Origin: Tenericutes bacterium HGW-Tenericutes-5
GTDB taxonomy: Bacteria > Bacillota_I > Bacilli_A > Izemoplasmatales > Hujiaoplasmataceae
NCBI GenBank assembly: GCA_002839125.1
Contig: PGXI01000001.1
Coordinates: forward strand, 1 to 37,335
Direction: 5' to 3'
Length of the DNA stretch: 37,335 nt
The notes beneath the pieces are model-generated. The model ran no database searches, was not told where the DNA came from, and saw nothing but the letters and a program-made list of their open reading frames with translations. Shown piece after piece: positions 4,387-30,073 of the stretch. The first letter of the stretch is position 1, and the number at the start of each line of letters is the position of its first letter. The position numbers were made by a program, and so were the translations under genes.

Positions 4387-4415
4387 ATTATAATACTTAA
4401 TCGTGAACATTACAA
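4387..4415 (-). promoter_or_regulatory. candidate sigma70-type promoter of the lipoprotein gene
   Basis: Minus strand: TTGTAA (4410-4415), 17-nt spacer, TATAAT (4387-4392). Confidence 0.4.
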
Positions 4416-4436
4416 ATGACAATTAATAAATAATAG

Positions 4437-4464
4437 AAAATATAGACAAATTTGTCTATATTTT
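4437..4464 (-). terminator. perfect 28-bp palindrome; probable terminator of the ABC operon, possibly also an operator
   Basis: AAAATATAGACAAATTTGTCTATATTTT starts 26 nt after the permease stop and is followed on the minus strand by a T-rich tract. Confidence 0.5.
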
Positions 4465-4489
4465 GATATATAAAACTTTTGATTTTATT

Positions 4490-6931: not shown

Positions 6932-7583
6932 CTATCAAATTAATCGTTTTATTACAGTATTTTAAATAATCTTCATTATGAGTAACTAAAATAATGGTTA
7001 AATTTTCATCCTTATTTAGTTTCTCTAGCAAATCCATTATTTCTTTTCCTTTTTTCTGATCAAGGTTTCCCGTAGGTTCATCAGCAAAAAGGATTCTTGG
7101 GGTATTAACCAAAGCTCTTGCAATCGCTATTCTTTGTTGCATACCTCCAGATAACTCATTCGGATAATAATCTCGGTACTCACTCATACCAACCAAAGCA
7201 AATAATTCATTAATCTTGTCTTCATCATTTTTTCCAGCTATTACACTTGCTAGCAGCACATTTTCGTATGCTGTTAAGTTAGGAACTAAATTATAAAATT
7301 GGAAAATAAACCCTAAATGTTTTTGACGCAATTCCGACACTAAAGAGTCTGTTAAATTATTTATGTTTTGGCCATCCAAACTAATTTCGCCATTATCTAT
7401 GGTTTCTAATGAACTTAGGCAATAAAGCAGAGTTGTTTTACCAGATCCAGATGGTCCTATAATACCTAAAAAATCACCTTCGTTTACACTCATGGTGATG
7501 TTTTTTAAAATATGGTTTTTATATTTTCCTTGTATATAATACTTATTTAGATTCTTAACTTCCAAGATTGCCAAAACTATCAC
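6906..7583 (-). CDS. ABC transporter ATP-binding protein (MacB/LolD-like)
   Basis: Walker A GPSGSGKTT, signature LSGGMQQR, Walker B ILFADEPT, H-loop VTHN. The start is ambiguous: GTG at 7583, or in-frame TTG at 7565 giving MEVKNLNKYY. Confidence 0.9.
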   Translation of the reverse strand: MIVLAILEVKNLNKYYIQGKYKNHILKNITMSVNEGDFLGIIGPSGSGKTTLLYCLSSLETIDNGEISLDGQNINNLTDSLVSELRQKHLGFIFQFYNLVPNLTAYENVLLASVIAGKNDEDKINELFALVGMSEYRDYYPNELSGGMQQRIAIARALVNTPRILFADEPTGNLDQKKGKEIMDLLEKLNKDENLTIILVTHNEDYLKYCNKTINLIDGEFIDNK

Positions 7584-7640
7584 TACTTTCTTGTTTTTTA
7601 TTATCTAAATAATATCATTATAAAGGTTTTTTTTCAATGT

Positions 7641-7670
7641 TAAAAGAAAAAACCCATTAATTTGGGTTTT
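7641..7670 (-). terminator. rho-independent terminator ending the DUF5320/NifX/MinD operon
   Basis: Stem AAAACCCA / TGGGTTTT with a 6-nt loop that contains the stop codon, followed on the minus strand by TTCTTTTA. Confidence 0.7.
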
Positions 7671-8142
7671 CTTTTTTTACTTTACATTTAACGTGATTTG
7701 CTTCATACCTCAACCAGAAAAATCCTAAAACTAGAAGTACTAAAGCAAGGAATTTATAAGGTAATCCTGCTAAAGGCAATACTGCTACAGCGAATGTTAT
7801 TCCTATCGTTGAGAAAAAAGCTATTACACAAGGGGTACAACCATATGTCAACATTCCAAATATCACTGCCGCACCTGACATAAACGATCCTTTGCCTTCT
7901 CTACCGGTCAATTTAACTAAAGCGGTTGAGACATTCCACATGAATGCACTTATGAATGCCATAACTACATTCAGTAAAATATTTCCAATTACTAAAAAGA
8001 TACCATATTCTTCCAACATTCCATCATAACCGATATTTAAAAAATCAAGCAATGTATATAATCCCATAAAAATTATAAACACGATTGACCCTTGAATAAT
8101 GTATTTTTTTTCTTTTTGCATACTAAGAATAGTAGTAAACAT
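7657..8142 (-). CDS. small polytopic membrane protein with intramembrane CxxC (GCTPC)
   Basis: About 4-5 hydrophobic helices. The motif TYGCTPCVIAFF lies inside a helix. The start is moved to ATG 8142, 6 nt after SD GAGGTG; the ORF-track GTG at 8151 lies inside that SD. Confidence 0.6.
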   Translation of the reverse strand: MFTTILSMQKEKKYIIQGSIVFIIFMGLYTLLDFLNIGYDGMLEEYGIFLVIGNILLNVVMAFISAFMWNVSTALVKLTGREGKGSFMSGAAVIFGMLTYGCTPCVIAFFSTIGITFAVAVLPLAGLPYKFLALVLLVLGFFWLRYEANHVKCKVKKENPN

Positions 8143-8207
8143 AAAAATCACCTCATATTATGTGAATAATTATAACATAATTACTACTCTAATTAATATT
8201 TAAATGC

Positions 8208-9065
8208 TTATGAAAAAATCTTCAACGTATTTATATATACTTCTTTAATTTCTTTATAAGCTTTGGAATTTTCTTCTAAGAAAACTCCATTATTTATGCT
8301 ATCGATAATTGCTTTATGATATCCTACTTTTCCAACAAAATTATATTTATTTTCTTTTGTATATTTTATTATTTCGTTTGTTAATCTCGAGTTCAAATTA
8401 TGCTTATTAATACATATTGCAATCGGCAAATGGAAACTTGTAGCTGTTTTAATGATTCTTTTCAAATCCGAGATTCCTGAAACTGAAGGTTCTGCAACCA
8501 AAAGAATCATATCAACACCAGACATTGAAGCTATAACTGGACATCCAATACCTGGCGGTCCATCAATGATAACTAAGTCATCTTCCTTGATATATTCCTG
8601 CATATTCTTTTTAACTTTGGTAACCAATAACCCTGAATTTCCACTACCCATTTGTAATTCAGCGGTCGTAAATACTTGCCTATCTTCATATAAACAAATT
8701 TCACCATCTATATACTTGACAAAACTTATAGCATTAACAGGACACACATAATTACAAACTCCGCATCCTTCGCACATATGCTTATTTATTTCATACATAC
8801 TATCAGCAAAACTAATCGCACTAAACTTGCACGATTCTTTACAAAGTCCGCATTGAATGCAATGTTCTTGATCAATGACTGATTTGTCCAAACCATAATA
8901 GTTTTCGCGCTTTTTTACGTCTTTAATTGCCGATACAAGATGCAAATTTGGTGCTTCAACATCGCAATCTGCAAAAACACGAGCTTTAGAAATATTAATA
9001 AAATTACTAGCAAAGGTAGTTTTTCCAGTGCCGCCTTTTCCACTTAATATTAGAAGTTTTTTCAT
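8208..9065 (-). CDS. MinD/ParA-superfamily P-loop ATPase with inserted 2x[4Fe-4S] ferredoxin domain
   Basis: Deviant Walker A GKGGTGKTT. Two CxxCxxCxxxC(P) motifs: CIQCGLCKESC and CEGCGVCNYVCP. Walker B-like sequence LVIIDGPPG. The start overlaps the upstream stop (ATGA). Confidence 0.85.
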   Translation of the reverse strand: MKKLLILSGKGGTGKTTFASNFINISKARVFADCDVEAPNLHLVSAIKDVKKRENYYGLDKSVIDQEHCIQCGLCKESCKFSAISFADSMYEINKHMCEGCGVCNYVCPVNAISFVKYIDGEICLYEDRQVFTTAELQMGSGNSGLLVTKVKKNMQEYIKEDDLVIIDGPPGIGCPVIASMSGVDMILLVAEPSVSGISDLKRIIKTATSFHLPIAICINKHNLNSRLTNEIIKYTKENKYNFVGKVGYHKAIIDSINNGVFLEENSKAYKEIKEVYINTLKIFS

Positions 9066-9889
9066 ACTTTTCTCACCAATAACTTATCAGCTAATTTTTC
9101 AAAAAAATGTTTGTACTTCATATCTTTGGCAGCTATTTCACCATTAGAATTTATCAACCCTAATTCTTTATCAAATGGTACTTCTAAAAGCACTTCAATA
9201 TTTTCAGATTCCGCAAAGTCATTAATTATTTTATGTTGGGATGCTTTATTAATTACTATACCAACTTTTTTTTCAAACACTTGAGTTAACTCATAAACCA
9301 TTTTTAAATTGTGTAAACCGAAAATTGTTGGTTCAGCAACTAATAAACAATAATCCGCATTTTTTATGCTCCCCATGACGCTGCATCCATTACCTGGTGG
9401 GCAATCAATAACTACATCTTCTAAAATGTCTTTTGAAATTTCGATTATTTCATCAATTATTTTTACACCAGTTTCTTCTTTTATATTCATTTCACCACCT
9501 ATGACTCGGTGACCTTCAAATTCTGTTTCTTTTATTGTTCCTATTGATTTTTTTACTTCAGTTATCGCAGAAACAGGACAAACCAGCTTACATCCACCAC
9601 AGGAATGACATAGTGAAGAGAAAACTCTCACCTTATCAATGATTATCGCTAAAGCATTAAACCTGCAAAAATCTGCACATTTTCCGCAAAGTGTACAAGC
9701 ATCGTGATCAATAACTGGAATATCTACATCAACTTGTTTTACAATTTTATCACCTTTGAAATATAAATCTCCATTGGGTTCTTCTACATCACAATCTAAA
9801 TAAGCTGCGTTTTTTATTACGTAAGCTAAATTTACCGATATAAATGTTTTTCCAGTTCCGCCTTTACCACTTAACACAGCTATTCTCAA
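9062..9889 (-). CDS. MinD/ParA-superfamily P-loop ATPase with inserted 2x[4Fe-4S] ferredoxin domain (paralogue)
   Basis: GKGGTGKTF; CTLCGKCADFC and CHSCGGCKLVCP; VVIDCPPG. TTG start, with SD AAGGAG inside the end of the upstream gene. Confidence 0.85.
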   Translation of the reverse strand: MRIAVLSGKGGTGKTFISVNLAYVIKNAAYLDCDVEEPNGDLYFKGDKIVKQVDVDIPVIDHDACTLCGKCADFCRFNALAIIIDKVRVFSSLCHSCGGCKLVCPVSAITEVKKSIGTIKETEFEGHRVIGGEMNIKEETGVKIIDEIIEISKDILEDVVIDCPPGNGCSVMGSIKNADYCLLVAEPTIFGLHNLKMVYELTQVFEKKVGIVINKASQHKIINDFAESENIEVLLEVPFDKELGLINSNGEIAAKDMKYKHFFEKLADKLLVRKV

Positions 9890-10559: not shown

Positions 10560-11786
10560 CTATTCTCTTTCAAAAGGCATAGACATACATCTAGGTCCGC
10601 CCCTACCTCTAGATAATTCACTAGATGGCATTTTATGAATCTTGATTCCATTTTGCTCCAAAAGACTATTAGTAATATGATTTCTTTCATAAACAATTAC
10701 TTCACCCGGTCTAATTACAATTGTATTAGCTCCATCGTTCCACTGTTCTCTATCACTAGCCACAGGATCATCTTCACCACCACATGGAATAAGTGTAATA
10801 TTTCTTCCTAAATATTTAGATAAGATATCATCTAATTTCCCTTCAATTGGCAAAACGTCAAGTTTTTCTTTATGCGTTTTTGATTTTGTAACTTCGTAGG
10901 CTTTAATAACATGTCTTAATTCTTGATGAATTAAGAATTTATCATAATCAACCTGCGTAAATACAGTATCTAAATGCATAAAAGCTCTACTCTTAGGGAT
11001 ATCAAAAGCTAAGACTATTTCAAAATCGGTTTTATTGTAATAGAATAAGTTTTTTGCTAATCTTTCAATTGCTGCTGGATGAGTTCTTTCAGAAACGCCG
11101 ACAGCCAATATCTTGTCGTTTAATACAAGAATATCTCCACCCTCTAATGTTGGTACCAGCTGACGATTATAGTAATGAGGAATATCTTTGTTTCCATAAA
11201 TCGGATGATATTTAAAGATATATTCTCCATAGATAGTTTCTCTTGATCTTGTTACTGAAAACATCTTTGAAATTGAAACTCCATTAGCAATAATTGAAAA
11301 TGGGTCTCTGGTAAAATATAAATTCGGCATTGGATCAGTAACGAACGGATAATCACGAATATAATCTGATAAAGTTCTTTTTGTGAAATTTGGAACTTCA
11401 TCTTTTCTAATTCCTGCCATCGTAGCACTTACCATTTTCTTTGTAATCTTCATGGACTTTAAATAATCGAAAATTAATAGTTTTAAAGTATCGCTTGTTA
11501 TTGAGGCTTCTTCAATGAATTGATTGATAAATTCATTTTTTACATCTTCAGATGTTTCTAAAGCTTCAGCTACCAAATCAACTAAATACAATACTTCAAC
11601 ACCATTTTTTCTAAATATATCTGCAAAAGCATCATGTTCCTTTTGCGCTAGATCTAACCAAGGGATATCATCAAACAATAGTTGGTTCAACCATTTTGGA
11701 GTTAGGTTTTCGAGTTCTCTTCCCGGTCTATGTAAAAGCACTTTCTTTAATTCTTTAATTTCTGATTTCACATTTAATAAACTCAT
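10560..11786 (-). CDS. arcA: arginine deiminase
   Basis: 408 aa with typical ArcA N-terminus (EIKELKKVLLHRPG.EL..LTP) and C-terminal catalytic Cys motif GGPRCMSMP. SD AGAGAGGA. Confidence 0.9.
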   Translation of the reverse strand: MSLLNVKSEIKELKKVLLHRPGRELENLTPKWLNQLLFDDIPWLDLAQKEHDAFADIFRKNGVEVLYLVDLVAEALETSEDVKNEFINQFIEEASITSDTLKLLIFDYLKSMKITKKMVSATMAGIRKDEVPNFTKRTLSDYIRDYPFVTDPMPNLYFTRDPFSIIANGVSISKMFSVTRSRETIYGEYIFKYHPIYGNKDIPHYYNRQLVPTLEGGDILVLNDKILAVGVSERTHPAAIERLAKNLFYYNKTDFEIVLAFDIPKSRAFMHLDTVFTQVDYDKFLIHQELRHVIKAYEVTKSKTHKEKLDVLPIEGKLDDILSKYLGRNITLIPCGGEDDPVASDREQWNDGANTIVIRPGEVIVYERNHITNSLLEQNGIKIHKMPSSELSRGRGGPRCMSMPFERE

Positions 11787-11799
11787 AAAAATCCTCTCT

Positions 11800-13182
11800 T
11801 TACTTGATTGGTTTAAATTCTGCAGTAAAATGCCTTAAGATAGGGGACTCATAAACGAATTCCAATCCTTTTAGTTTTGGCCCTCTTTTACTTACTTCAA
11901 TCAAACACTCAGCTACATAATTCAAGTGTTCTAACGTATATGTTCTACGTGGTATAGTCAGTCTTAAAAATTCTTTATCCGCTCTTAGATTTTCATGAGT
12001 GTCTGGATCTCTACCTAATAAAAGTGATCCGATTTCTACCGCTCTTATTCCGCCTTCAAGGTATAACTCGTTACAAATAACTTGGGCAGGAAATTGGTTA
12101 AAAGGAATTTGTGGACAGATTGCTCCACAATCAACAAATACCGCGTGTCCACCAGTCGGATACTGAATAGGAACTCCTCCAGCTCTTAATTTATCTCCTA
12201 AATATCTAATTTCATCAAGACGATATTGTAAATAATCTTCTTCTAAAGCTTCTTTTAAGCCAACAGCTAAAGCATCCATATCCCTTCCGGATAACCCACC
12301 ATATGTTGGGAACCCTTCCATCGGTATGACTCTAACCTGACAAGCTCTAAACATTTCTTCATTATCTTTTATCGCTATTAACCCACCGATATTAACAAGA
12401 CCATCTTTTTTACTACTCATTAAAAACAAGTCAGCTAAATCAAATTGCTCTCTCGCTATATCTTTAACAGATTTATTTTCATAACCTTTTTCTCTAAGTT
12501 TGATAAAATATGCGTTTTCAGCATATCTAGCCCCATCGATAACTACAGGTATGCCATTTTCTCTGGCAATCTTATTAACTTCACGCATATTCTCTAAAGA
12601 TACTGGTTGTCCGCCAGCGGAATTATTAGTAATAGTCATGATAATTGCGGCAATATTTTCTTTTTTCTTATCTGCGATTATCTCTTTTAATTTTAATAAA
12701 TCAAAATTACCTTTAAAAGGATAATCCAACTCCAGATCAAAACACTCTTTACAAACACAATCAATCGCTCTACCACCAGCTAATTCTACATGGGCTCTAG
12801 TTGTATCAAAATGAATATTTGATATAACATACATCCCTGGTCTTTTAATTAAGTTCGGTAAAGCAACTTGTTCAGCTCCCCTGCCTTGATGAGCCGGAAT
12901 TACATACTTATATCCTGTAATCTCTTTAACCGCCGCTTCTAGGCGATAAAAGCTTCTAGAACCAGCATATGCTTCATCACCCATCATCAATGCTCCCCAT
13001 TGAAAATGAGACATTGCTCCTGTTCCTGAATCAGTTAAAAGATCAATAAAAACATCTTCTGATTTTAATCTAAAAGGATTAAAACCCGCCTGTTCTAATT
13101 TCTTTTCTCTTTCTGCTTTTGAAATAAGTTTTATTGGTTCCACCATTTTGATTTTAAATGGGGGTAAAGAATAATTTTTCAT
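11800..13182 (-). CDS. tnaA: beta-eliminating lyase, tryptophanase-like (tryptophanase / tyrosine phenol-lyase family)
   Basis: [12 protein letters not shown] and the PLP-Lys motif [18 protein letters not shown] carries Asp at the substrate-specificity position where TPL has Thr (FTTTR). GFPTYGG resembles TnaA rather than TPL (GMPSYGG). Comparison is to remembered E. coli and C. freundii sequences. Confidence 0.7.
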
Positions 13183-13234
13183 CTACACTCTCCTCTCGAT
13201 AATCTACTTATGAAAACCCTTTCTTTCCTTAACA

Positions 13235-13263
13235 ATTATACTATAAATACAAACTTTAGTAAA
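13235..13263 (-). promoter_or_regulatory. candidate promoter of tnaA-arcA
   Basis: Minus strand: TTTACT (13258-13263), 17-nt spacer, TATAAT (13235-13240). Confidence 0.45.
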
Positions 13264-13277
13264 TGCAAACTTGGGCG

Positions 13278-13311
13278 AAAAAAAAGATTAGAATCTTATC
13301 AATTCTAATCT
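13278..13311 (-). terminator. rho-independent terminator ending the photolyase operon
   Basis: Stem AGATTAGAAT / ATTCTAATCT with a 7-nt loop. It overlaps the Nudix stop codon and is followed on the minus strand by T7. Confidence 0.8.
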
Positions 13312-13721
13312 TTAAATATTATATCTCGATGTAATTTATAGATTTCTATCATGTGACCGATATTACCTTCTCCAGCAAACTTTTCGGTATCATAGAAATT
13401 CTCTTCGATATCAATCCAATGAAGTTTGTGAACTTCTTCAATCAATTCTACGTCTTCTTTAAGTTTTCCAATAAAAACAATCATTTTCATGTCAATCGGA
13501 TGCCAAACAAAATCCATAAACATTGATAGTAATATATCGTTTTTGGTTATTCCGGTCTCTTCAAATAATTCCCTATAAGCACTAGCTAAATAGTCTTCAC
13601 CGTTTTCAATTTTACCGCCAACAAGATTAAACTTACCAATATATGGATTTTTTGATCTATGACACATTAAAACTTTATCTTCATTCTTATTTAAAACTAA
13701 AATCAAGTTAAATAACTTCAT
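13305..13721 (-). CDS. Nudix hydrolase (MutT-like size)
   Basis: Nudix box GGKIENGEDYLASAYRELFEETG. 138 aa. Confidence 0.85.
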   Translation of the reverse strand: MKLFNLILVLNKNEDKVLMCHRSKNPYIGKFNLVGGKIENGEDYLASAYRELFEETGITKNDILLSMFMDFVWHPIDMKMIVFIGKLKEDVELIEEVHKLHWIDIEENFYDTEKFAGEGNIGHMIEIYKLHRDIIFKD

Positions 13722-13728
13722 CCAAAAA

Positions 13729-14124
13729 TTACCAAATCCAATGATAAATCAAATATGTTAATAAACTAATAGAAGTTGATAAGAAGGTTCCCCAAATTAA
13801 ATCCACGATAGTAACTGTGATTGGCCAATCTTTTAAAGTTGCTAAATTAGTTAAATCATATGTTGCATAAGTCATGAATCCAAAAACTGCACCAGTTAAA
13901 ACAACCTTACCTAAGTCTTTAGCTTCTATGCCTGATTTTAGGAAAAATACAAGCCCAACAATAAACAGTAAATAAAACACTAAAGCCGCAATAAAGTTAG
14001 GTCTTTCAGCCATCAAATGACCGATTTGAGCTTTATAAAACTTCGGAGCCACTAATCCTAACCAGATAGCGTCAATAGCTAAAAACACCACAAAAGCTAT
14101 CGCATACATTTTAATAAAATTCAT
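13729..14124 (-). CDS. DUF2177-family 4-TM membrane protein
   Basis: 131 aa with four hydrophobic helices. The pattern IDAIWLG...P.FY matches DUF2177 as I remember it. SD AAGGGG lies inside the photolyase 3' end, with a 2-nt gap. Confidence 0.6.
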   Translation of the reverse strand: MNFIKMYAIAFVVFLAIDAIWLGLVAPKFYKAQIGHLMAERPNFIAALVFYLLFIVGLVFFLKSGIEAKDLGKVVLTGAVFGFMTYATYDLTNLATLKDWPITVTIVDLIWGTFLSTSISLLTYLIYHWIW

Positions 14125-14126
14125 AA

Positions 14127-15362
14127 TTATTCCCCTTTTCTTATTTCATTCATTTTTACTACATAATCTTCAATATTAAACTTTCTTTTTAAGCCATTGT
14201 CATTCATATATCTTAACTTACCAAATATTGGTCTTTCAGTCCAAGCTCTGTCATGTTTTCCAAAACACCAAGCCACACCACAATACCCATTTGGAGTAAA
14301 CCCATCAATAAAGTAATAATTATTTAACTCAATCGCAATATCATATGCTTCTTCATAACTTCTAGACCATTCTATAATTTTCTTACACCAATACATTCTC
14401 ATATAAGAATGCATTCTACCTGTATAAACCATCTCAATCATGGCCGCGTTAAAATATGGATCATGAGTATTAAAATTAATATAATCTTCTTTAGAATAAA
14501 TATACTCTCTTTTATCCTTTAAGTGTTGATTCATTGATTTATATGCCCAGTCATATGTCATATATTGAAATTGATCATATGTAGGATTAAAGTAGACAAA
14601 GTTATATGCAAGTTCTCTTCTTACAATTAACTCTTCTAAAAAAGCATCCTTATTTTCAGTATTTACTTTAGCTAACCGATCAAAAATTGTCACTGGTGAT
14701 ATAAATCCATATTTTAAGTATGCACTAAGTAAAGAGGTGTAATTTAATGATGGATCATTATGTAAATGGTAATTATCTAATTTATTTTCAATAAAATTAT
14801 CTAAAATTCTTAGCGCTTCTTTTTCACCAATTGTTGTTGGCATATTATCAAGCACTGAAATTCGATATTCATTAAGTTTTGAATTAATCTTATTTCTAAT
14901 TGTTCTGGCTGAATATTCTTCTTTATCAGAAGCTACTGATACTGGAACAAAAACATTTGACTCAACGGTAAAAAGATTTATGTTATTTGTTAAGCATTTT
15001 TGCTTAATTTGTTCATATTGATTTATGTCGAAGCGCAAATAGGCTTTATCTACAAAAATTGAATTAAAACCTGCTAATAAATCATATAACTTATCGTTTC
15101 TTTTTACATATTTAACACTGTCAGAAAAAAGCTTTAAATTATCAACCAAATCAATAGTATTTTGTTCAAAAAATTCTATATTTCGAGGATTCTCTTCATA
15201 AGGTTCAACGACAACTATCTCTAGTTTTAATTGATAAAATTTTGCATGATTTATAGCTTCATAAAGAGAATAATTATTTCTTATCCTAAATGATTTGGTC
15301 ATAATATAAAGGCATTTTTTATTATCGTTATTAAATTCTAATATTTTAAGTATTCTACTCAT
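14127..15362 (-). CDS. phr: class II CPD deoxyribodipyrimidine photolyase
   Basis: Class II signature blocks: KEEYSARTIR, FLEELIVRRELAYNF, THDPYFNAA, GRMHSYMRMYWCKKIIEW, PNGYCGVAWCFGKHDRAWTERPIFGKLRYMN..GLKRKF. The start abuts the upstream stop (TAAATG). Confidence 0.88.
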   Translation of the reverse strand: MSRILKILEFNNDNKKCLYIMTKSFRIRNNYSLYEAINHAKFYQLKLEIVVVEPYEENPRNIEFFEQNTIDLVDNLKLFSDSVKYVKRNDKLYDLLAGFNSIFVDKAYLRFDINQYEQIKQKCLTNNINLFTVESNVFVPVSVASDKEEYSARTIRNKINSKLNEYRISVLDNMPTTIGEKEALRILDNFIENKLDNYHLHNDPSLNYTSLLSAYLKYGFISPVTIFDRLAKVNTENKDAFLEELIVRRELAYNFVYFNPTYDQFQYMTYDWAYKSMNQHLKDKREYIYSKEDYINFNTHDPYFNAAMIEMVYTGRMHSYMRMYWCKKIIEWSRSYEEAYDIAIELNNYYFIDGFTPNGYCGVAWCFGKHDRAWTERPIFGKLRYMNDNGLKRKFNIEDYVVKMNEIRKGE

Positions 15363-16148
15363 TTATTTCTTGGGAAACCAGGGAATAAATGCATTTGTTT
15401 TTTTTGCGTATTCATCCCAACCAGGGGCTTCCTTCATCTTTCTTTCTAACATAGGAACACCGCTAACAAATCTCAGTAAGTAAGTTATAACAATTGGGCT
15501 AATTATTGATAGGTACTTCCAGAAAGAATCTGTTGGCATTGCTAAAACAACAATGAACAAACCCCACCACATAACTGCTTCACCAAAATAATTAGGATGC
15601 CTTGTATATTTCCATAATCCAGTAGTCATTAATTTTTGCAATTTATTCTTATTAGCAATATGTTTTTTTAATTGATAATCTCCTACAACTTCAAAGAAGT
15701 AACCGAAAATCCAAACTAAAACACCAATAACAACTAATATCCAACTGAAACCACTATCAAGCCCTGGAGTAACATTAATCCAAAACACTCCCAAACCAAC
15801 AACAAACATAAATAATCCTTGAAGCATAAAAACTTGTAAGAAAGCACGAGGCACTACCCATTTACCCCAGTCCTCACGCCACTTTTTATATCTAAAATCT
15901 TCTTCAGCAAAAATGTTTCTTTTTAAAATATAATAGAAAAGTCTTAATCCCCATAAACTAACCAAAACATTAACAATAATTTTATCAATGCCATAATCAG
16001 CTTTTACAAAGAAGAGAATCCAAGCCGTCACTACAAACCCTAATCCCCAGCCGATATCCACAATGCTATTATTCTTAATAATTGTTGCGACTACAAAAAA
16101 GACTAAAAAATAGATAAATATAACTAAAGCTGCTAATTCGATTCCCAT
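15363..16148 (-). CDS. DUF1295-family polytopic membrane protein (steroid-5-alpha-reductase/ICMT-like)
   Basis: About 6-7 TM helices. The C-terminal motif [19 protein letters not shown] is typical of DUF1295. SD AAGGAGA. Confidence 0.75.
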
Positions 16149-16160
16149 ATTTATTTCTCC

Positions 16161-17924
16161 TTATTTTTTTATATATCCAATCGCAACAGATCCCTTACCG
16201 CTATGAATAGCAGTTGCACTGGATACTTCTGATATATATTCCGGTTCTCTACCGATAATTTCAGTGAAAAGGACTTTATATTCATCTAATAGTTCTTGAT
16301 TTAAACAATGGATTAAAGCATATCTATCAATACCTTTGGTTTCCAAATCCTTTTTAACATGTTTAACTATTTTTTTTGTAATTCCCTTTTGTGATAAAGC
16401 AAATCCAAAAGCAGCTCCTTTACCTAATTCATCAATTGACATTATCGGTCTAATTCCAAAGAACATACCTATTTTACCAACTGCTTTAGGTAATCTTCCG
16501 CTCATCATTGCATACTTAAATGTTTCTAGACAAACTAAGATTTCCGATTTTGCTTTTTCTTCATTTAAAACTTTTTCTATTTCATCAATATTCTTTCCAT
16601 TTTTAAGCATTTCAACTGCTTTATTAACTAAAAGACCTTGAGCCACTGAATTTGTCAAAGTGTCTACAATTCTTATGTTTTTTCCCTTAGCTACTAACTG
16701 ATCGACCTCTTTTTTAATAACATTAAATGTTGCGCTTAAATTACTAGAAACAGCTACAACCAAGATATTCTTATAATTCAACAATAATTTTGAAAATAAA
16801 TCATTGATATATTTAATTGTTGGAGTTGCAGTTGTCGGATATTCTAGACTATTTTCAATCAAATCAAAAAGAATCTCATTATTCAAAGTAATTTTATCAA
16901 AATAAGTAATCCCTTCGATATTAACATTTAAAGGAATTACTACAACATTGTTTTCTTTTAAATAATTTTGATCAATATCGGCAATTGAGTCAGTAACAAT
17001 TACAGTATCACTTTCGGAATACTTCATATTGATATCACCAATCATGTCATCAACTTTTTGACTGATTACTTTACCGAATTTCCTTAATTCTTGGAATACT
17101 AATTCAGGTTGATTCGTATGAATATGGATCCTAAACATCTTAGCTCCCATAACGACAATCAAACTGTCTCCATAAGGTTTTAATGTTTCTTGGATAATTT
17201 CCTCTTTTTGATTACTATATTCAACTAAACCTTCTGTACAATATCTAAAATTAATTTCCTCATGAAAATCATGAGTATTTTCAATTTCTAGTTCTTCGTA
17301 TGCCATCTCTTCAATTTGTTCTTTATTGAAATAACTGTTAATACCCTTTAAGAATAAAACAAATCCCATTGCCCCACTATCCACGACATTATTCTTCTTT
17401 AATATCGCTAACTGTTCTTTAGTTTTCTCTAAAGCTTGCTCTGCTATAGTATAAGCAACCAAAAAGAAATCTTTGATATTTTTTGCGGCTGATAGAGTTT
17501 CTTTTAACCCTTTAGCCCATTCTTTAATTACGGTAATCATGGTTCCTTCCACAGGATTACTTAAAGATGAATATGTATGTTCTACACTCTCAAGAGCCAT
17601 ATCGGCAAACTCATCCAAACTCACTAATTCTTTACCTTTAGAGGCTGTTCTCAAACCATTAACAAACTGAGCAAAAATAACTCCACTATTCCCTCTAGCT
17701 CCAATAAGCGCTGAATCACTGATTGAATCTAAGGTAGTTTGAAAAGACTCTTGAGGTTTTGATTCTCTCGAGATTGTTTGCATAGTATAAACTAAATTAT
17801 TACCCGTATCACCATCAGGAACGGGAAAAACATTGATATCATTAAGTTTCTTTCGTTTCTTAACAACAAAAGTAGTCCCGTAGTTAAACATTTGATATAA
17901 ATCATGACCAGTTAGATATTCCAT
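16161..17924 (-). CDS. DAK2/DhaL (FakA-like N-terminal + middle domains) fused to a DegV (FakB-like) fatty-acid-binding domain
   Basis: N-terminus: FPVPDGDTGNN (DhaL/DAK2). Middle: FRYCTEGLV...GDSLIVVMG...RIHIHTNQP (FakA/YloV middle domain). C-terminal roughly 280 aa: VIVTDSIADI...VVIPLNV...YFD, ATPT, AVSSNLSATF, DTLTNSVAQG, MSGRLPK, IHSGKGSVAIGY (DegV). The start is moved to ATG 17924, 6 nt after SD GAGGTG. Confidence 0.75.
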   Translation of the reverse strand: MEYLTGHDLYQMFNYGTTFVVKKRKKLNDINVFPVPDGDTGNNLVYTMQTISRESKPQESFQTTLDSISDSALIGARGNSGVIFAQFVNGLRTASKGKELVSLDEFADMALESVEHTYSSLSNPVEGTMITVIKEWAKGLKETLSAAKNIKDFFLVAYTIAEQALEKTKEQLAILKKNNVVDSGAMGFVLFLKGINSYFNKEQIEEMAYEELEIENTHDFHEEINFRYCTEGLVEYSNQKEEIIQETLKPYGDSLIVVMGAKMFRIHIHTNQPELVFQELRKFGKVISQKVDDMIGDINMKYSESDTVIVTDSIADIDQNYLKENNVVVIPLNVNIEGITYFDKITLNNEILFDLIENSLEYPTTATPTIKYINDLFSKLLLNYKNILVVAVSSNLSATFNVIKKEVDQLVAKGKNIRIVDTLTNSVAQGLLVNKAVEMLKNGKNIDEIEKVLNEEKAKSEILVCLETFKYAMMSGRLPKAVGKIGMFFGIRPIMSIDELGKGAAFGFALSQKGITKKIVKHVKKDLETKGIDRYALIHCLNQELLDEYKVLFTEIIGREPEYISEVSSATAIHSGKGSVAIGYIKK

Positions 17925-17959
17925 TATTATGCACCTCAATAGTTTTAATTTATGGACAT

Positions 17960-17968
17960 ATTTTATCA
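17960..17968 (-). promoter_or_regulatory. candidate extended -10 (TGATAAAAT) for the Fak-photolyase operon
   Basis: Minus-strand TGATAAAAT lies about 35 nt upstream of ATG 17924 and downstream of the terminator at 18005-18038. The -35 is weak. Confidence 0.3.
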
Positions 17969-18004
17969 CAGAATGACTTACTATAAAATGATTAAGCATT
18001 TATT

Positions 18005-18038
18005 TTTAAAAAAATATCAAGCAAATTTTGCTTGATAT
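18005..18038 (-). terminator. rho-independent terminator of the padR-HAAS bicistron
   Basis: Hairpin ATATCAAGCAAA-T-TTTGCTTGATAT lies 5 nt after the stop and is followed on the minus strand by T7. Confidence 0.75.
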
Positions 18039-18042
18039 TAAT

Positions 18043-19029
18043 CTATTTTAAATGCTTAATTTTCTTGAAATACAAGCTAATTAAATCAATAATATTAGCT
18101 ACTATTATAATCCCAACTATTGAGGATTTAAATATATTAATGAAATTTTCAACTTGATTATAAGTAAAACTTAGTTCTGTAGAAATTCTAGTAATAAAAT
18201 CTACACTTATTAAATCTCCGGTTAAGAACACAACAGCAACAACTACACTAAATATCTTCGAGATAACATACATAATCAATAAGTTATAGTTCCATTGTGC
18301 ATATTTTATTTTGAATGCATATACTATAGCTTCAACAAATAATGATACTCCAAATATTAAAACAAATAATCTTGTATACTCTAGATTGAAAATACTTTCT
18401 TCAACAACCCATTCGCCGCCTACTTCAAACCAACCTAAATAAAGGTTGCTATAATATAAAATATATAACCATATACTTCCAAAGATTATTGTAACTACAA
18501 GACCTGCAATAGAACCACTTCTTGATATTGAAAGATTGGTCTTTTTTGGCACTTCAGGCAAGTCTTCAACTTTCCAATCATCTTTCTTTTCTCCATATCT
18601 ATCAATCGCAATAAATATTAGAGTAACAATCGCAAATCCGCTAAGCAAAGAACTAAATGCATTACCTATAGTTTCGAAGAAAACTTCAAAAATAGTTCCA
18701 AAAACCATATTTGACTCAATATTTTGCAGCGATTCAATCAGACCAAAAACAATCCCAATAGCTCCTAAAATAATCAATACAATCTTCAAAGTATAAAGAT
18801 AATCTCCCATCCATATAGGTGAAATCAGTCCTCTATAATTCCGATAGCTATTAGCAATTTGTCTTGGTGAACCCAATGAATAAAGCGCTCTTTTTACTTC
18901 TTCTTCATTAGATTCATCTTCAACCATTTCAAGAATATTGGCTCTTAATTCATTACCAACATCTTCTCTTTCTTCTTCTTTAAGTCTTCTTGTTACATCA
19001 TAAATATACTTTTCAATTAATTTACTCAT
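18043..19029 (-). CDS. HAAS (DUF1700)-domain membrane protein, about 6 TM; partner of PadR
   Basis: The N-terminus MSKLIEKYIYDVTRRLKEEEREDVGNELRANILEMVED...LGSPRQIANSY matches the DUF1700/HAAS pattern and is followed by six hydrophobic helices. The ATG at 19029 overlaps the padR stop (ATGAGTAA), with SD AGGTGA 5 nt upstream. Confidence 0.7.
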   Translation of the reverse strand: MSKLIEKYIYDVTRRLKEEEREDVGNELRANILEMVEDESNEEEVKRALYSLGSPRQIANSYRNYRGLISPIWMGDYLYTLKIVLIILGAIGIVFGLIESLQNIESNMVFGTIFEVFFETIGNAFSSLLSGFAIVTLIFIAIDRYGEKKDDWKVEDLPEVPKKTNLSISRSGSIAGLVVTIIFGSIWLYILYYSNLYLGWFEVGGEWVVEESIFNLEYTRLFVLIFGVSLFVEAIVYAFKIKYAQWNYNLLIMYVISKIFSVVVAVVFLTGDLISVDFITRISTELSFTYNQVENFINIFKSSIVGIIIVANIIDLISLYFKKIKHLK

Positions 19030-19360
19030 TAGTTTCACCTACAATTTTCATAATTTCTTCGTTAATTTTTTTCCATTCATTTAATAACTCATCTAATACT
19101 TCTTTTCCCAAATCACTAATTTCATAGTATTTTCTAGGTCTTGCCGAAGATGTATCCCACTCACTTTCTAATAAACCCTGACTTTCTAGTCTTCTCATTA
19201 AAGGATATAAGGTCCCCGCTTCTATCGATAGGTCTTTATCAATTAACTTCTCTAATAAAGAGTAACCATATTCTTTATTGCTTAACTGACTTAAAACCAT
19301 CATTATTTGTGTGCCTCTTCTGAGTTCGACCTTTAACGACTCAATGTCAACTTTACTCAT
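19022..19360 (-). CDS. PadR-family transcriptional regulator
   Basis: 112 aa winged HTH: YGYSLLEKL....IEAGTLYPLMRRLESQGLLESEW......RKYYEISDLGK. SD GAGGTG. Confidence 0.88.
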   Translation of the reverse strand: MSKVDIESLKVELRRGTQIMMVLSQLSNKEYGYSLLEKLIDKDLSIEAGTLYPLMRRLESQGLLESEWDTSSARPRKYYEISDLGKEVLDELLNEWKKINEEIMKIVGETNE

Positions 19361-19377
19361 TTTACCACCTCGAATAT

Positions 19378-19407
19378 ATTATACTGTATGTCATACTATA
19401 TTGTCAA
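19378..19407 (-). promoter_or_regulatory. consensus sigma70 promoter of padR-HAAS
   Basis: Minus strand: TTGACA (19402-19407), 18-nt spacer, TATAAT (19378-19383). The -35 is centred in the 15-bp palindrome TATATTGTCAATATA (19397-19411). GTATG-N-CATAC (19386-19396) lies in the spacer. Confidence 0.7.
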
Positions 19408-19453
19408 TATAAAATTATTAATTTTTTTAAATTTTTATTCTTGTGCAAACGAG

Positions 19454-19481
19454 TTGACAAATTGTCATAATATGATATATT
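19454..19481 (+). promoter_or_regulatory. near-consensus sigma70 promoter of the heliorhodopsin gene
   Basis: TTGACA (19454-19459), 16-nt spacer, TATATT (19476-19481). The -35 overlaps the perfect 13-bp palindrome TGACAAATTGTCA (19455-19467). SD AAAGGAGA lies 8 nt before the ATG. Confidence 0.65.
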
Positions 19482-19513
19482 TAAATTAGAAAATAAATAA
19501 AGGAGATATAACA

Positions 19514-20305
19514 ATGGAAAAAACAAGTTTTCAAAGCTTAAGAAAGTTTAATTTAATTATGGGCGCTATACATTTTGTACAGGGCATACTAATGATTATT
19601 TTATCCTCAACAGTAATTCAAACAATTTCCGAATTCAAACCTACTATTACCCAAATATTTTTAAGATTTGACACCACTACTCAATCACTAGTGGTTGATA
19701 TGAAAAATCTATTTGATTTACCTTTCGGTATCATGGTAGCTTTATTCTTACTACTATCAGCTGCTGCTCATGCTATTATTTCTTTACCTAAAAAGACGAA
19801 TGCCATTTACAACGCCGACCTTGAAAAAGGTATTAATCGTTTCAGATGGTATGAATACGCGCTAAGTTCATCAATAATGATCGTTTTGATTTCCACTCTA
19901 TTTGGAATCTATGACATCGGATCATTAGTTTTAATCTTTATCGTTAACGCCAGCATGAACCTATTTGGTCTATTGATGGAACAAGTTAACTCTGGAAGAG
20001 AAAAGAAAGATATTAAATGGGGAGCTTTTATCTTCGGTTCAATCGCTGGACTAGCTCCTTGGATTGTAATTATCCTTTACATGGTTGGTAATGGCAATTA
20101 CGAAATGGTTCCATGGTTTGTTTGGGCGATCGTAGGTACATACTTTGTAGCTTTCAATACTTTCCCAATCAATATGATTCTTCAGTACAAAGGGATTGGA
20201 AAATGGAAAAACTATCTTTATGGTGAAAGAGTATATATTACTTTAAGTCTAGTAGCTAAAACTCTTCTTGCTTGGTTAGTTCTATTTGGAGCCATGCAAC
20301 CATAA
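19514..20305 (+). CDS. heliorhodopsin (retinal-binding 7-TM protein with inverted topology)
   Basis: Block-wise near identity to heliorhodopsin 48C12 as remembered: RFRWYEYALSSSIMIVL (counterion Glu114), FIVNASMNLFG, IAGLAPWIVIILY, LQYKGIGKWKNYLYGERVYITLSLVAKTLLAW (Schiff-base Lys249, codon 20258-20260). His20 and His86 sit at the conserved His positions. Confidence 0.9.
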   Translation: MEKTSFQSLRKFNLIMGAIHFVQGILMIILSSTVIQTISEFKPTITQIFLRFDTTTQSLVVDMKNLFDLPFGIMVALFLLLSAAAHAIISLPKKTNAIYNADLEKGINRFRWYEYALSSSIMIVLISTLFGIYDIGSLVLIFIVNASMNLFGLLMEQVNSGREKKDIKWGAFIFGSIAGLAPWIVIILYMVGNGNYEMVPWFVWAIVGTYFVAFNTFPINMILQYKGIGKWKNYLYGERVYITLSLVAKTLLAWLVLFGAMQP

Positions 20306-20324
20306 AATCTTATTTTTAAAAATA

Positions 20325-20366
20325 AAAAGCATATATATCCTGAAAATGGATTATATGCTTTTTTTA
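20325..20366. terminator. bidirectional terminator shared by the heliorhodopsin gene and the convergent Nudix gene
   Basis: AAAAAGCATATATATCC / GGATTATATGCTTTTTTT (one bulge), 7-nt loop, with A-run and T-run on both flanks. Confidence 0.7.
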
Positions 20367-20893
20367 TTATTTTTGTAATATTCAAGAATTTTAATATCTC
20401 TAGTCACAATAAATTTTGTAATATAAATATTTTCATATTTACTTCCGATTAAGTTATCAAAACTATTTTTCATTGTTTCTAAAGCTTTGTCTATATCCAT
20501 CCAAAGTAGGGTTCCACCTTCTTCTTTTTCCTTTTCAGTTAAGTTGAGAAAATTGTTTTGTTTACTACATTCACCGATAAACACTTTGCTAATCTGTTTG
20601 AAATTACTTTGTGATTTATGTTCTTCAATATAACCTATTTCTCTAACACTACTTAAAATGCAGCCGGTTTCTTCTTTTACTTCTCTAATGAAAGCTTCTT
20701 TAAATGACTCTCCATTTTCAACACCGCCACCTGGTAATTTAAACTCATTTTTATTAACTTTATTGAAAATGGCAATTTTATTTTCCTTATTATAGACTAT
20801 TCCTCTAGATGCATAGCGAATAATCGGATTGTTAAAAGGTATATTTTCATAACCAATATCAGAATCTTTTATTATAGCGATTAAATTATCCAT
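20351..20893 (-). CDS. Nudix hydrolase
   Basis: Nudix box GGGVENGESFKEAFIREVKEETG. 180 aa. Confidence 0.85.
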   Translation of the reverse strand: MDNLIAIIKDSDIGYENIPFNNPIIRYASRGIVYNKENKIAIFNKVNKNEFKLPGGGVENGESFKEAFIREVKEETGCILSSVREIGYIEEHKSQSNFKQISKVFIGECSKQNNFLNLTEKEKEEGGTLLWMDIDKALETMKNSFDNLIGSKYENIYITKFIVTRDIKILEYYKNNKKSI

Positions 20894-21024
20894 AATTATC
20901 TCCTTACAATTATTAGTATTTCTATATAATTATATCACCGGAATTGGCAAATCTGTTGAACGAAAAAAAATTTTATGTTACATTATAAACGAAACGAATA
21001 TAAATCAATTTTAGGAGAACTAGC

Positions 21025-21810
21025 ATGGATGTATTGTTTGCGTTTTTACTAACTTTATTTGCTGGACTAGCAACAGGTATCGGAAGTATATTCGCCTTTA
21101 ACAAGAAAATTAAAAAAGAAACATTATTGTCATTTGCTCTAGGATTAAGTGCTGGAGTAATGATATACGTTTCTTTTGTTGAAATCTTTCCAAAGGCTCT
21201 TGAATCACTAAGCCAAATATATGCGACAGAAACAGCTTATTTGTTTACTACACTTTCTTTCTTCTTTGGAATCGCTTTAATAGCCTTTATTGATTATATA
21301 ATTCCAGAAAAATCAAATCCCCATGAACTTCATGATGAATTAGATGAAAAAGGAAAAAAGGACAGTTTAATGAGATTGGGAATGTTTTCTGCTATAGCTA
21401 TAGCAGTTCATAACTTTCCTGAAGGTTTAGCTACTTTTATTGGAGCACTAGAAGATCCAGCACTCGGTATCAGCATCGCAATAGCTATCGCTATTCATAA
21501 TATTCCTGAAGGAATTGCAGTAGCTGTACCAATATTTCATGCTACAAACTCAAAAAAGAAGGCCGTCGGTTTGACTTTGCTTTCCGGTTTAGCTGAACCA
21601 TTAGGCGCTGTTGTCGGCTTTGTTCTACTTAGATCGATATTTACTGATGCAACTTTCGGGTTTTTATTTGCTGCTGTAGCTGGAATCATGGTTTACATAT
21701 CTCTAGATGAACTGTTACCGTCAGCCGAAAAATATGGAAAGCATCATTTATCTATTACGGGTCTTATACTTGGAATGATTATCATGGCTGTATCACTAAT
21801 ATTGTTTTAG
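21025..21810 (+). CDS. zupT: ZIP-family zinc transporter ZupT
   Basis: HNFPEGLA and HNIPEGIAVA metal-binding motifs, about 8 TM, 261 aa. SD AGGAGAA. Confidence 0.88.
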   Translation: MDVLFAFLLTLFAGLATGIGSIFAFNKKIKKETLLSFALGLSAGVMIYVSFVEIFPKALESLSQIYATETAYLFTTLSFFFGIALIAFIDYIIPEKSNPHELHDELDEKGKKDSLMRLGMFSAIAIAVHNFPEGLATFIGALEDPALGISIAIAIAIHNIPEGIAVAVPIFHATNSKKKAVGLTLLSGLAEPLGAVVGFVLLRSIFTDATFGFLFAAVAGIMVYISLDELLPSAEKYGKHHLSITGLILGMIIMAVSLILF

Positions 21811-21870: not shown

Positions 21871-22947
21871 TTAATCACTAAAAACCGGTTCATTCAAAGA
21901 AATAATCCCTAGATCAAAATCAATAGTTGCGGTAATGCCGTATGGAATAACATTTCTAGGATAAGCATGGCCAAAATTAATATTTACAATAGTAGGTATC
22001 TTATGTTTTGAAGCGAAATCAGATAATATTTTATTATATTCATCAAAGTAAATTTCATTCTGTGGCTTTCCAACCATCATAGCTACAATCTTATCAAACA
22101 CTCCTTGTCTTTCTAATTCTTCTAAGTAAGTCTTAAATTCATTTGGTTTTGGTGTTTCTTCACTAGTTTCAAAGAATAAGATTTTATCTTCCCAGTCAAA
22201 TAAATCTGGCATTAATTTATATTTAATATAGATTTCCCTTTGCATTGGGTATCTTGTACCAGTATAACCATCATACAAACTCTCCAAACATCCTCCCAAA
22301 AGTCCACCAGTAATTTTTCCATTTCCATATAAAACTTTATAGCCGAACTTTTCACTCTGTGATTTTCTTTTAGTCCCCAATGCTTCAACCGAAAAATCAT
22401 TTCTTTCCAAATACCATATTGGCGAAGATTTAATAAGTCGAGTATTCGGATTCTTAAAGAATGTTTCAAATGCTTCTTTGGTGTAAGGAAGCATTTCTTC
22501 TTCTAATTCAGCTATGTCGCTTAGAAAATTAGGCCCATAAAAACTCACCACACCTAACTTATAAAACATTAGATGATTGTTTGTTGTATCAGAAAATCCT
22601 GTAAATAACTTCGGTGATTCTTTAACTTTTTTTATGAATTCTTCATCCTCAATTAAATGAGGTAACAATCGATATGTATCATCCCCACCAATTGCGCAAA
22701 TTATTCCTTTTATTCTGTCATCAAAAAAAGCATCTTTCAAATCTTGTGCTCTAGCTTTAGGATTTTGATCCAAAAAATCAATACCCTTTAAGGCATTGGG
22801 CATAAATATTGGTTTTAGACCAAAACTCTCAAGTCTTTCTATTCCTCTTTTTAACTGATGTTTGCACATACTTTCACCAAGTATTCCTGAAGACAAACTA
22901 ACAATTGCTATATAATCTCCTTTTTTTAACTTTTTTGGTTTTTTCAT
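21871..22947 (-). CDS. S66-family LD-carboxypeptidase / MccF-like serine peptidase
   Basis: Nucleophile elbow FTGFSDTT, acidic FFETSEE, C-terminal His in NINFGHAYP. The 358-aa length suggests the MccF-like subgroup. Confidence 0.75.
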   Translation of the reverse strand: MKKPKKLKKGDYIAIVSLSSGILGESMCKHQLKRGIERLESFGLKPIFMPNALKGIDFLDQNPKARAQDLKDAFFDDRIKGIICAIGGDDTYRLLPHLIEDEEFIKKVKESPKLFTGFSDTTNNHLMFYKLGVVSFYGPNFLSDIAELEEEMLPYTKEAFETFFKNPNTRLIKSSPIWYLERNDFSVEALGTKRKSQSEKFGYKVLYGNGKITGGLLGGCLESLYDGYTGTRYPMQREIYIKYKLMPDLFDWEDKILFFETSEETPKPNEFKTYLEELERQGVFDKIVAMMVGKPQNEIYFDEYNKILSDFASKHKIPTIVNINFGHAYPRNVIPYGITATIDFDLGIISLNEPVFSD

Positions 22948-29986: not shown

Positions 29987-30073
29987 TTTAATCACCGGTA
30001 TTAGTATATCATATAAATTAAATCAACTGGTTATTTATTGATTAAATTGATAGAATAGTAATAGGTGAAATTA

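Follow-up and report, generated by a model that had tools for sequence, protein, structure and literature searches.

The first 37,335 nucleotides (nt) of contig PGXI01000001.1 of Tenericutes bacterium HGW-Tenericutes-5 (assembly GCA_002839125.1), which we call the window, contain on the minus strand a run of five consecutive open reading frames (ORFs), at 13305–17924, in which the gene for a class II cyclobutane pyrimidine dimer (CPD) photolyase (phr) stands between genes for two membrane proteins of the DUF1295 and DUF2177 families. The run begins with a fused fatty-acid kinase gene (fak) and ends with a Nudix hydrolase gene, and a heliorhodopsin (HeR) gene lies a short distance upstream.

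Gene content and boundaries of the unit

16161–17924, minus strand: fak fusion, 587 amino acids (aa); the longest ORF reaches 17999, and the start at 17924 is preferred
15363–16148, minus strand: DUF1295 membrane protein (PF06966)
14127–15362, minus strand: class II CPD photolyase, 411 aa; its ATG directly follows the stop codon of DUF1295 (TAAATG)
13729–14124, minus strand: DUF2177 four-helix membrane protein (PF09945)
13305–13721, minus strand: small Nudix hydrolase (PF00293)
17960–17987, minus strand: probable operon promoter from a promoter scan, with a TTTATA −35-like element, a 16-nt spacer and the extended −10 element TGTGATAAAAT (TG before the −10)
13275–13313, minus strand: intrinsic terminator, a 13-bp AU-rich stem followed by U8, overlapping the Nudix stop codon
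18007–18045, minus strand: terminator of the upstream PadR-HAAS gene pair, a bidirectional hairpin that forms the 5′ boundary of the operon

The spacers between the five ORFs are 12, 0 (TAAATG), 2 and 7 nt, and their Pfam matches are, in order, Dak2 with FakA-like_M and DegV, DUF1295, DNA_photolyase, DUF2177 and NUDIX. These coordinates and identities bear out a sequence-only reading of the same DNA, which had proposed a five-gene operon with exactly these gaps, bracketed by terminators. Both bracketing hairpins proved far more stable than shuffled controls, and each is followed by a U-run. The downstream hairpin (13283–13313) has a predicted energy of −12.6 kcal/mol (z = −4.74) and precedes a U8 run; it was missed by a consensus terminator scan solely owing to its AT-rich stem. 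The upstream hairpin (18013–18039) reaches −15.1 kcal/mol (z = −5.37). Internal promoters or terminators would split the unit, as the sequence-only reading had pointed out. The terminator scan found no terminator-like site on the coding strand within the five genes, and the promoter-like matches inside the unit all have a weak score of 9/12 and are not enriched over shuffled sequence (67 versus 61.3 ± 9.3). Seven related loci share an extended −10 element of the type TGTGATAWAAT at the corresponding place ahead of fak. An Rfam search of 12000–21500 returned no RNA family, and base composition gave no sign of a recent foreign origin of phr, with GC content at 25–36% across the region.

Two features lie upstream of the operon:

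19514–20305, plus strand: HeR gene (Pfam, 326.2 bits; NCBIfam HeR equivalog, 303.9 bits)
18043–19360, minus strand: PadR transcription factor (19022–19360; Pfam PadR, 63 bits) and its polytopic membrane partner with a HAAS domain (18043–19038; 34.1 bits)

The HeR gene is 1.59 kb from the operon start, in agreement with the distance of 1.6 kb given earlier. Placed between HeR and the operon, the PadR-HAAS pair is a candidate local regulator. The intergenic stretch between HeR and PadR (19361–19513) contains a pair of divergent promoters that match the consensus perfectly or almost so, and a palindrome overlaps the −35 element of each; these palindromes, TATATTGTCAATATA (19397–19411) and TGACAAATTGTCA (19455–19467), are possible PadR operators. 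No obvious equivalent motif was found upstream of fak.

The photolyase lineage and its gene order

By sequence and structural model, the photolyase is predicted to be complete, a class II CPD enzyme with both domains and with its flavin adenine dinucleotide (FAD) and lesion-site residues intact. In phmmer searches the C-terminal domain matched 8oet with E = 2e-70 and the M. mazei and rice class II structures with E of about 1e-70. The AlphaFold model (pLDDT 93) has a whole-length TM-score of 0.90 to the M. mazei enzyme MmCPDII (2xry, 8oet), and Foldseek gave query-normalised scores of 0.86–0.91 to MmCPDII and rice class II photolyases, compared to 0.63–0.72 to class I/III photolyases and cryptochrome. 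The equivalents of MmCPDII N403, M379, W421, W381 and W388 are invariant across the clade of short photolyases to which the window enzyme belongs. At 411 aa, this enzyme is approximately 40–50 residues shorter than typical class II photolyases (about 450–460 aa; around 450 aa for 73 other class II sequences), and its N-terminal domain barely reaches the Pfam threshold (27.9 versus 26.6 bits). Because that domain is divergent and short, the protein scores 350.2 bits against TIGR00591 (phr2), below the cut-off of 550.05, and solely residues 178–403 align well.

A further difference from MmCPDII concerns W360, the medial residue of its photoreduction chain of Trp residues, W381-W360-W388. Its position is occupied by Phe304 in the window photolyase and by Phe in 45 of 46 members of the short clade, whereas, of the other class II sequences aligned, 66 of 73 have Trp; one of the seven Phe sequences outside the clade (L088; related loci are denoted by L and a number) is a mis-sized short-clade ORF. 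In a neighbor-joining tree all 20 Phe-type photolyases (window, L001–L008, L087–L092, L096, L102, L117, L134 and L161) fall into a single clade. HeR was present within 8 kb in 9 of 16 Phe-type loci compared to 5 of 66 Trp-type loci (Fisher p = 5e-5, with no correction for phylogeny), which suggests that the HeR-linked photolyases are a lineage with an altered photoactivation route. The clade offers a concrete, testable explanation for a possible dependence of some photolyases on help from a rhodopsin. A highly improbable extension of this idea is that the lineage lost its Trp wire when W360 became Phe, and that in Izemoplasmatales it became part of a membrane module in which HeR, DUF1295, DUF2177 and the kinase form a light-gated platform that keeps the flavin active or extends the action spectrum while also repairing acyl chains. 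If that were true, DNA and lipid photorepair would be mechanistically coupled, beyond co-regulation. In a sister clade (L096, L102, L117 and L161; approximately 4400–9400), phr is divergent from a HeR gene, behind which lies a tocopherol-cyclase-like gene, a further pairing of HeR and photolyase with a lipid-antioxidant-type enzyme; L161 also carries DUF92.

Three metagenome contigs with the same neighboring genes encode a photolyase identical to that of the window at every residue, and homologues of the enzyme are annotated as Candidatus Izemoplasmatales. The order fak-DUF1295-phr-DUF2177 recurs in L087, L168, L169 and L170, with photolyase identities of 59–75%, and L167 has DUF1295-phr-DUF2177 without fak. 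In these five loci phr either overlaps each of its neighbors by 1–4 nt or is a few nt away from it. Both the gene order and its abutting or overlapping junctions are conserved across several genera. In L168, L169, L008 and L006, HeR is the immediate upstream neighbor of the fak operon and is transcribed divergently from it. It is likewise upstream in L087, where just a remnant of the HAAS 3′ end with its terminator (approximately 415–560) separates HeR from fak, pointing to a deletion or to a join made in assembly. No HeR lies within 8 kb of the operons of L167 and L170. Among related species, Xianfuyuplasma coldseepsis has been cultured and its genome is complete (CP048914.1).

Other relatives are arranged differently. 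L006 reads HeR / fak-DUF1295-DUF2177 / PadR-HAAS / phr-flavodoxin; L008 has fak-phr-DUF2177 without DUF1295; and a Xianfuyuplasma locus (L004) has DUF1295-phr followed by a DUF523/DUF1722 gene, without DUF2177, and L005 has only phr and DUF523/DUF1722. DUF1295-phr adjacency is kept without fak and DUF2177 in L004 and L088, and in L046 and L064 a Trp-type phr is convergent with, and beside, the fak/DUF1295/DUF2177 trio. The PadR-HAAS pair is placed in three ways relative to the module, either within it or next to it (window, 18043–19360; L006, 4907–6279; L007, 2–1239). The protein that follows the photolyase in the Izemoplasmatales-related genomes L004 (9238–10209) and L005 (9244–10218) combines DUF523 (2-thiouracil desulfurase-like) with DUF1722, the family of Escherichia coli YbgA, whose gene precedes phr; a DUF523-DUF1722 protein is also encoded just upstream of DUF2177 in the deltaproteobacterium L073 (6999–7949). 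In L170 the operon is followed by a DNA-damage tolerance cluster (11571–14415) of SRAP, an abasic-site sensor, a Y-family polymerase (IMS) and YolD.

One interpretation of the tight junctions is that two-sided translational coupling sets the stoichiometry of a membrane-anchored repair complex, in which HeR, DUF1295 and DUF2177 recruit the photolyase. The abutting or overlapping stop and start codons on both sides of phr in the window and in L167–L170 fit this idea, and a photolyase clade that lacks the medial Trp might depend on a partner. There is also a published example, as the sequence-only reading had mentioned: the HeR of Trichococcus flocculiformis (TfHeR) binds the class II photolyase TfPHR with a dissociation constant of about 22 µM, increases repair approximately 3-fold and allows it to work under green light (Shim et al. 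2022, PMC9769723); the accessions given there for TfPHR disagree (WP_086990817.1 and WP_086990819.1). However, the affinity in that pair is weak, and the window photolyase is modeled as an ordinary soluble two-domain enzyme with no extra membrane-binding segment. Gene order also varies, with phr away from the trio in L006, no DUF1295 in L008 and no DUF2177 in L004 and L005. An inverted repeat at 15360–15391 that spans the DUF1295 stop and photolyase start codons was considered as a coupling hairpin that would hide the start of phr as long as DUF1295 is not translated, and was rejected since at −8 kcal/mol (z = −1.68) it is no more stable than shuffled sequence. Given this evidence, we regard the repair complex as distinctly improbable.

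Alternatively, the unit could be a constitutive, well-expressed fak operon for housekeeping lipid uptake in a wall-less host that depends on exogenous fatty acids, into which phr and the Nudix gene were inserted without functional relation. FakA/FakB is a general system for fatty-acid incorporation in Firmicutes, the Nudix and PadR-HAAS genes move in and out, and gene order is shuffled among relatives. We nevertheless consider this unlikely. The association of these genes with phr and HeR recurs across rearrangements (L006, L008, L046 and L064), and DUF1295 and phr stay adjacent where fak and DUF2177 are missing. In addition, the related genome L007 has separate stand-alone DegV genes, so the fak fusion is probably not the general Fak.

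Heliorhodopsin neighborhoods and distribution across phyla

DegV (including Dak2-DegV fusions), DUF2177 and DUF1295 were described by Chazan et al. as signature neighbors of HeR in Firmicutes and Chloroflexi, best separating HeR neighborhoods from those of proton-pump rhodopsins, and lipid remodeling was proposed for the trio (bioRxiv 10.1101/2021.02.16.431466). The same signature is present here, in a Firmicutes-related lineage: all three families, including the Dak2-DegV fusion, are near HeR in the window (1.6 kb) and directly adjacent to it in L168, L169 and L006. Since this signature was published in 2021, its novelty here is modest. The window differs from the published neighborhoods in that a class II phr stands between DUF1295 and DUF2177 in one operon, to which a Nudix gene is appended. 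Chazan et al. give photolyase only as a family shared with proton-pump neighborhoods, outside the trio, and Cho et al. (2024) place photolyase and DUF2177 in separate HeR operon groups (PMC11109279). What is new here is the merging of these HeR-associated sets into one operon, together with the monophyletic, HeR-enriched W360F photolyase clade.

Like the Trichococcus pair, the window has its class II CPD photolyase gene close to HeR in a monoderm host, and there the link is one of genomic proximity. In Trichococcus the operon carries DUF2238, HIT and pentapeptide genes, with no fak, DUF1295 or DUF2177. In the window PadR-HAAS sits between HeR and the operon. The published Trichococcus photolyase primers, used to place that enzyme relative to the W360F clade, matched none of the fetched loci.

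The link between the trio and HeR could also mean that fak, DUF1295 and DUF2177 acquire or modify an isoprenoid or fatty-acid ligand needed by HeR, such as a retinoid or a fenestration lipid, with phr present only as a HeR-regulated gene. The DUF1295 superfamily includes enzymes that act on isoprenoids, such as polyprenol and sterol reductases and ICMT, and no retinal-biosynthesis gene was evident among the scanned window ORFs. Crystal structures of HeR show a fatty acid bound at the fenestration, and the trio is the best discriminator of HeR neighborhoods; however, the same families occur in many genomes without HeR (bioRxiv 10.1101/2021.02.16.431466). The operons of L167 and L170 lack HeR within 8 kb, as do 78 of 80 diverse DUF2177 loci in our sample. 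We therefore find such a ligand-supply role quite unlikely.

The breadth of these associations was assessed in two samples: DUF2177-anchored loci from 80 species-representative genomes of many phyla, and 80 metagenome loci anchored on class II photolyase, with neighbors counted within 8 kb. DUF1295 was found at 40 of the 80 DUF2177 loci (38 on the same strand within 3 kb), the Dak2-DegV fusion at 14, a class II photolyase at 3 and HeR at 2. All three phr-bearing loci are among the 14 with the fusion, compared to none of the other 66 (hypergeometric p ~0.004, calculated by hand). Around class II phr, HeR was found at 10 of 80 loci, DUF1295 at 5 and DUF2177 at 2. Linkage of DUF1295 and DUF2177 with phr in other genomes, which the sequence-only reading expected, is thus present at about 12 distinct loci, but it is restricted to Izemoplasmatales and related Bacilli and is not general (3/80, 5/80 and 2/80). 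On this distribution, DUF2177 and DUF1295 are an ancient, widespread pair, the fused kinase is an addition in Firmicutes and Chloroflexi, and the photolyase is a lineage-specific insertion.

A Pfam count of the genes flanking the DUF2177 cores (L007–L086) gave TspO/MBR (5), SOUL haem-binding (3), lipocalin (2) and AhpC (2), plus DUF523/DUF1722. The TspO, SOUL, lipocalin and AhpC families have tetrapyrrole or photo-oxidative-stress connections. Seven alpha-amylase matches also flank DUF2177; judging from the ORF lists, these are probably all from Anaerolineales and reflect one shared arrangement. At Gram-negative DUF2177 loci the flanking families include amine oxidase (4), CMAS (2) and DUF1365 (2). 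In two Desulfuromonadales loci (L069, 8361–12999; L073, 8400–13017), DUF2177 and DUF1295 flank DUF2878, a DUF1365-CMAS fusion (655–657 aa) and an amine oxidase. The fusion looks like a joined UfaO/UfaM-like enzyme in a furan/cyclopropane fatty-acid-type cluster, and the families of this cluster are those of the furan/cyclopropane fatty-acid pathway (PMC7380195).

A link between these families and singlet oxygen, suggested in the sequence-only reading for proteobacteria, was supported in part. In Chlamydomonas, the SAK1 regulon includes DUF2177, DUF1295, DUF1365, CFA1/2 and SOUL, induced together by singlet oxygen (PMC4067076), and the Desulfuromonadales clusters point the same way. However, the published core σE-ChrR regulon of Rhodobacter sphaeroides, which comprises a short-chain dehydrogenase/reductase, a lipoprotein, a cfa-like gene, DUF1365, an amine oxidase, phrB and cfaS, contains neither DUF1295 nor DUF2177 (PMC5507510, Table 2). 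What the proteobacterial regulon does share with the window is the joining of a photolyase, by co-regulation or location, to enzymes that modify membrane acyl chains under photo-oxidative stress: in the regulon, phrB goes together with cfa, DUF1365 and an amine oxidase (PMC3546557, PMC5507510). The two differ in that the window photolyase is class II and phrB is of class I/III type, in that the lipid branch in the window would consist of a fatty-acid kinase, DUF1295 and DUF2177, and in that the window's host appears to be an anaerobic fermenter. No extracytoplasmic function sigma factor/ChrR pair, cfa, UfaD amine oxidase or UfaO DUF1365 was found among the scanned window ORFs.

The putative lipid-handling genes and a proposed light-damage reading

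The first gene of the operon is predicted to encode a self-contained, single-chain FakA-FakB fatty-acid kinase of a distinct fused subfamily. It matches Dak2 (125.5 bits), FakA-like_M (73.5 bits) and DegV (199.7 bits), with residues 10–295 aligning with FakA (7w7h_A) and residues 307–587 with FakB/DegV structures, and the DegV/FakB domain stands in place of the FakA C-terminal domain. The Dak2 ATP-binding motif DGDTG is present (VPDGDTGNN in the translation). The DegV family model TIGR00762 is passed (208.2 versus a cut-off of 99.7 bits), and the equivalog matches are below their cut-offs (FakA_VfrB, 162.8 versus 975 bits; FakB1, 81.9 versus 350 bits). The start codon at 17924 has a GAGGTG ribosome-binding site 7 nt upstream, and the gene calls on three public contigs are likewise 587 aa long.

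The DUF1295 protein belongs to the steroid-5-alpha-reductase/ICMT/PEMT superfamily. It matches PF06966 at 214.9 bits over profile positions 1–235 and Steroid_dh at 34.3 bits (cut-off, 22.6), and it has the C-terminal cofactor-site motif RHPNYxGE; residues 121–209, around RHPNYFGE, weakly match the SRD5A2 structure 7bw1. It may be a lipid ene-reductase or a methyltransferase, and UsgR, a fungal protein resembling DUF1295, has ene-reductase activity (PMC8597850). The DUF2177 protein (PF09945, 153 bits) is modeled with high confidence (pLDDT 97.5) as four helices, and an alignment of 52 diverse members shows conserved intramembrane residues D18, Y30, Y51, Y86, Y89, T92, N93, D108 and W111. A fold search of this model against the PDB gave no significant match (best E = 0.79) and hence no structural hint on function. 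Apparent DUF2177-DUF1295 fusions at L075 and L084 were dismissed as overlapping ORFs in different frames, based on ORF coordinates.

We propose, with a probability of roughly 55%, that the five genes are a co-transcribed light-damage response operon, combining DNA repair with membrane-lipid handling, within a HeR-centered gene island. Light and UV would call for two repairs at once, and a single promoter, with translation of phr coupled to that of DUF1295, would deliver both. The photolyase would reverse cyclobutane pyrimidine dimers, possibly with a boost from HeR as in Trichococcus. The membrane branch would deal with light-damaged or light-sensitive acyl chains: DUF1295, with its steroid-reductase fold, would most likely reduce an activated C=C bond of a lipid, DUF2177 would serve as its near-obligate four-helix partner, and the fused kinase would turn free fatty acid into acyl-phosphate for re-incorporation into phospholipid. 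These enzymatic steps, light induction and any contact with HeR are what we infer from gene content and published relatives. Independent combinations of phr with membrane-lipid genes, in the σE-ChrR regulon and in the sister clade with HeR and a tocopherol-cyclase-like gene, support the theme.

The bond between phr and the membrane proteins is best read as co-regulation. A stoichiometric complex is not required, because relatives place phr outside the trio or lack members of it (L006, L008, L004 and L005). Of the integrated photodamage module that the sequence-only reading had envisaged, the operon itself and the links to HeR, phr and singlet oxygen stand; the Nudix gene, whose part in sanitizing the nucleotide pool is hypothetical, is a late addition. 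The repair complex, ligand supply and housekeeping uptake are each less supported than the co-regulated light-damage unit.

Several observations weigh against a light-damage operon. The single transcript and its induction by light are both points that we infer. The window encodes desulfoferrodoxin, an anaerobe's oxygen defence, and Fe-S proteins, so the host appears to be an anaerobe, which would limit singlet-oxygen chemistry. No class II photolyase is nearby in 77 of the 80 DUF2177 loci and no HeR within 8 kb in 78, which argues that the DUF2177/DUF1295 pair has a function independent of both. PEMT (25.6 bits) and ICMT (22.9 bits) also match the DUF1295 protein, so its sequence does not decide between reductase and methyltransferase or between NADPH and S-adenosylmethionine, and members of DUF1295 and DUF2177 are not known to act on any particular substrate. 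Finally, deletion of the genes other than UfaD and UfaO in the analogous R. sphaeroides operon left the fatty-acid profile unchanged (PMC7380195), suggesting that such lipid roles are hard to detect.

The function of HeR is unsettled, and two published leads, help to photolyase and lipid-gene neighbors, meet in this one operon. Together with HeR, the five genes could provide a compact test bed for a role of DUF1295 and DUF2177 in protecting membranes from photo-damage, in families that are widespread in bacteria and, according to the Chlamydomonas data, are also found in algae.

The last gene of the operon matches PF00293 at 59.9 bits and has an intact Nudix box (GX5EX7REUXEEXGU, here GKIENGEDYLASAYRELFEETGI); its best PDB matches are MTH1/MutT-like (E ~1e-6). 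The earlier description as a MutT-sized Nudix hydrolase needs one correction: the box is intact, but scores far below the NCBIfam cut-offs show that this is no MutT equivalog (PRK10776, 29.5 versus 148 bits; TIGR00586, 29.6 versus 97.9 bits), and the JGI label "8-oxo-dGTP diphosphatase" is an automatic annotation. A Nudix gene follows DUF2177 only in the copies of the window, L087 and L167, and orthologues sit elsewhere in L171 and L172, as would be expected of a late 3′ addition confined to a subclade. A 407-aa protein upstream of the L171 orthologue was considered as a hidden photolyase and discarded, having no similarity. A second Nudix gene (20351–20893, 180 aa) is convergent with HeR. It is nearest to YtkD-like RNA pyrophosphohydrolases, at a score below the cut-off, and is broken into two fragments (4521–4998) in L001, a contig otherwise identical. 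Elsewhere in the window are genes for desulfoferrodoxin (402–776), an LD-carboxypeptidase (Peptidase_S66; 21871–22947) and UvrB (28025–29995), of which the LD-carboxypeptidase is unexpected in a lineage described as wall-less.

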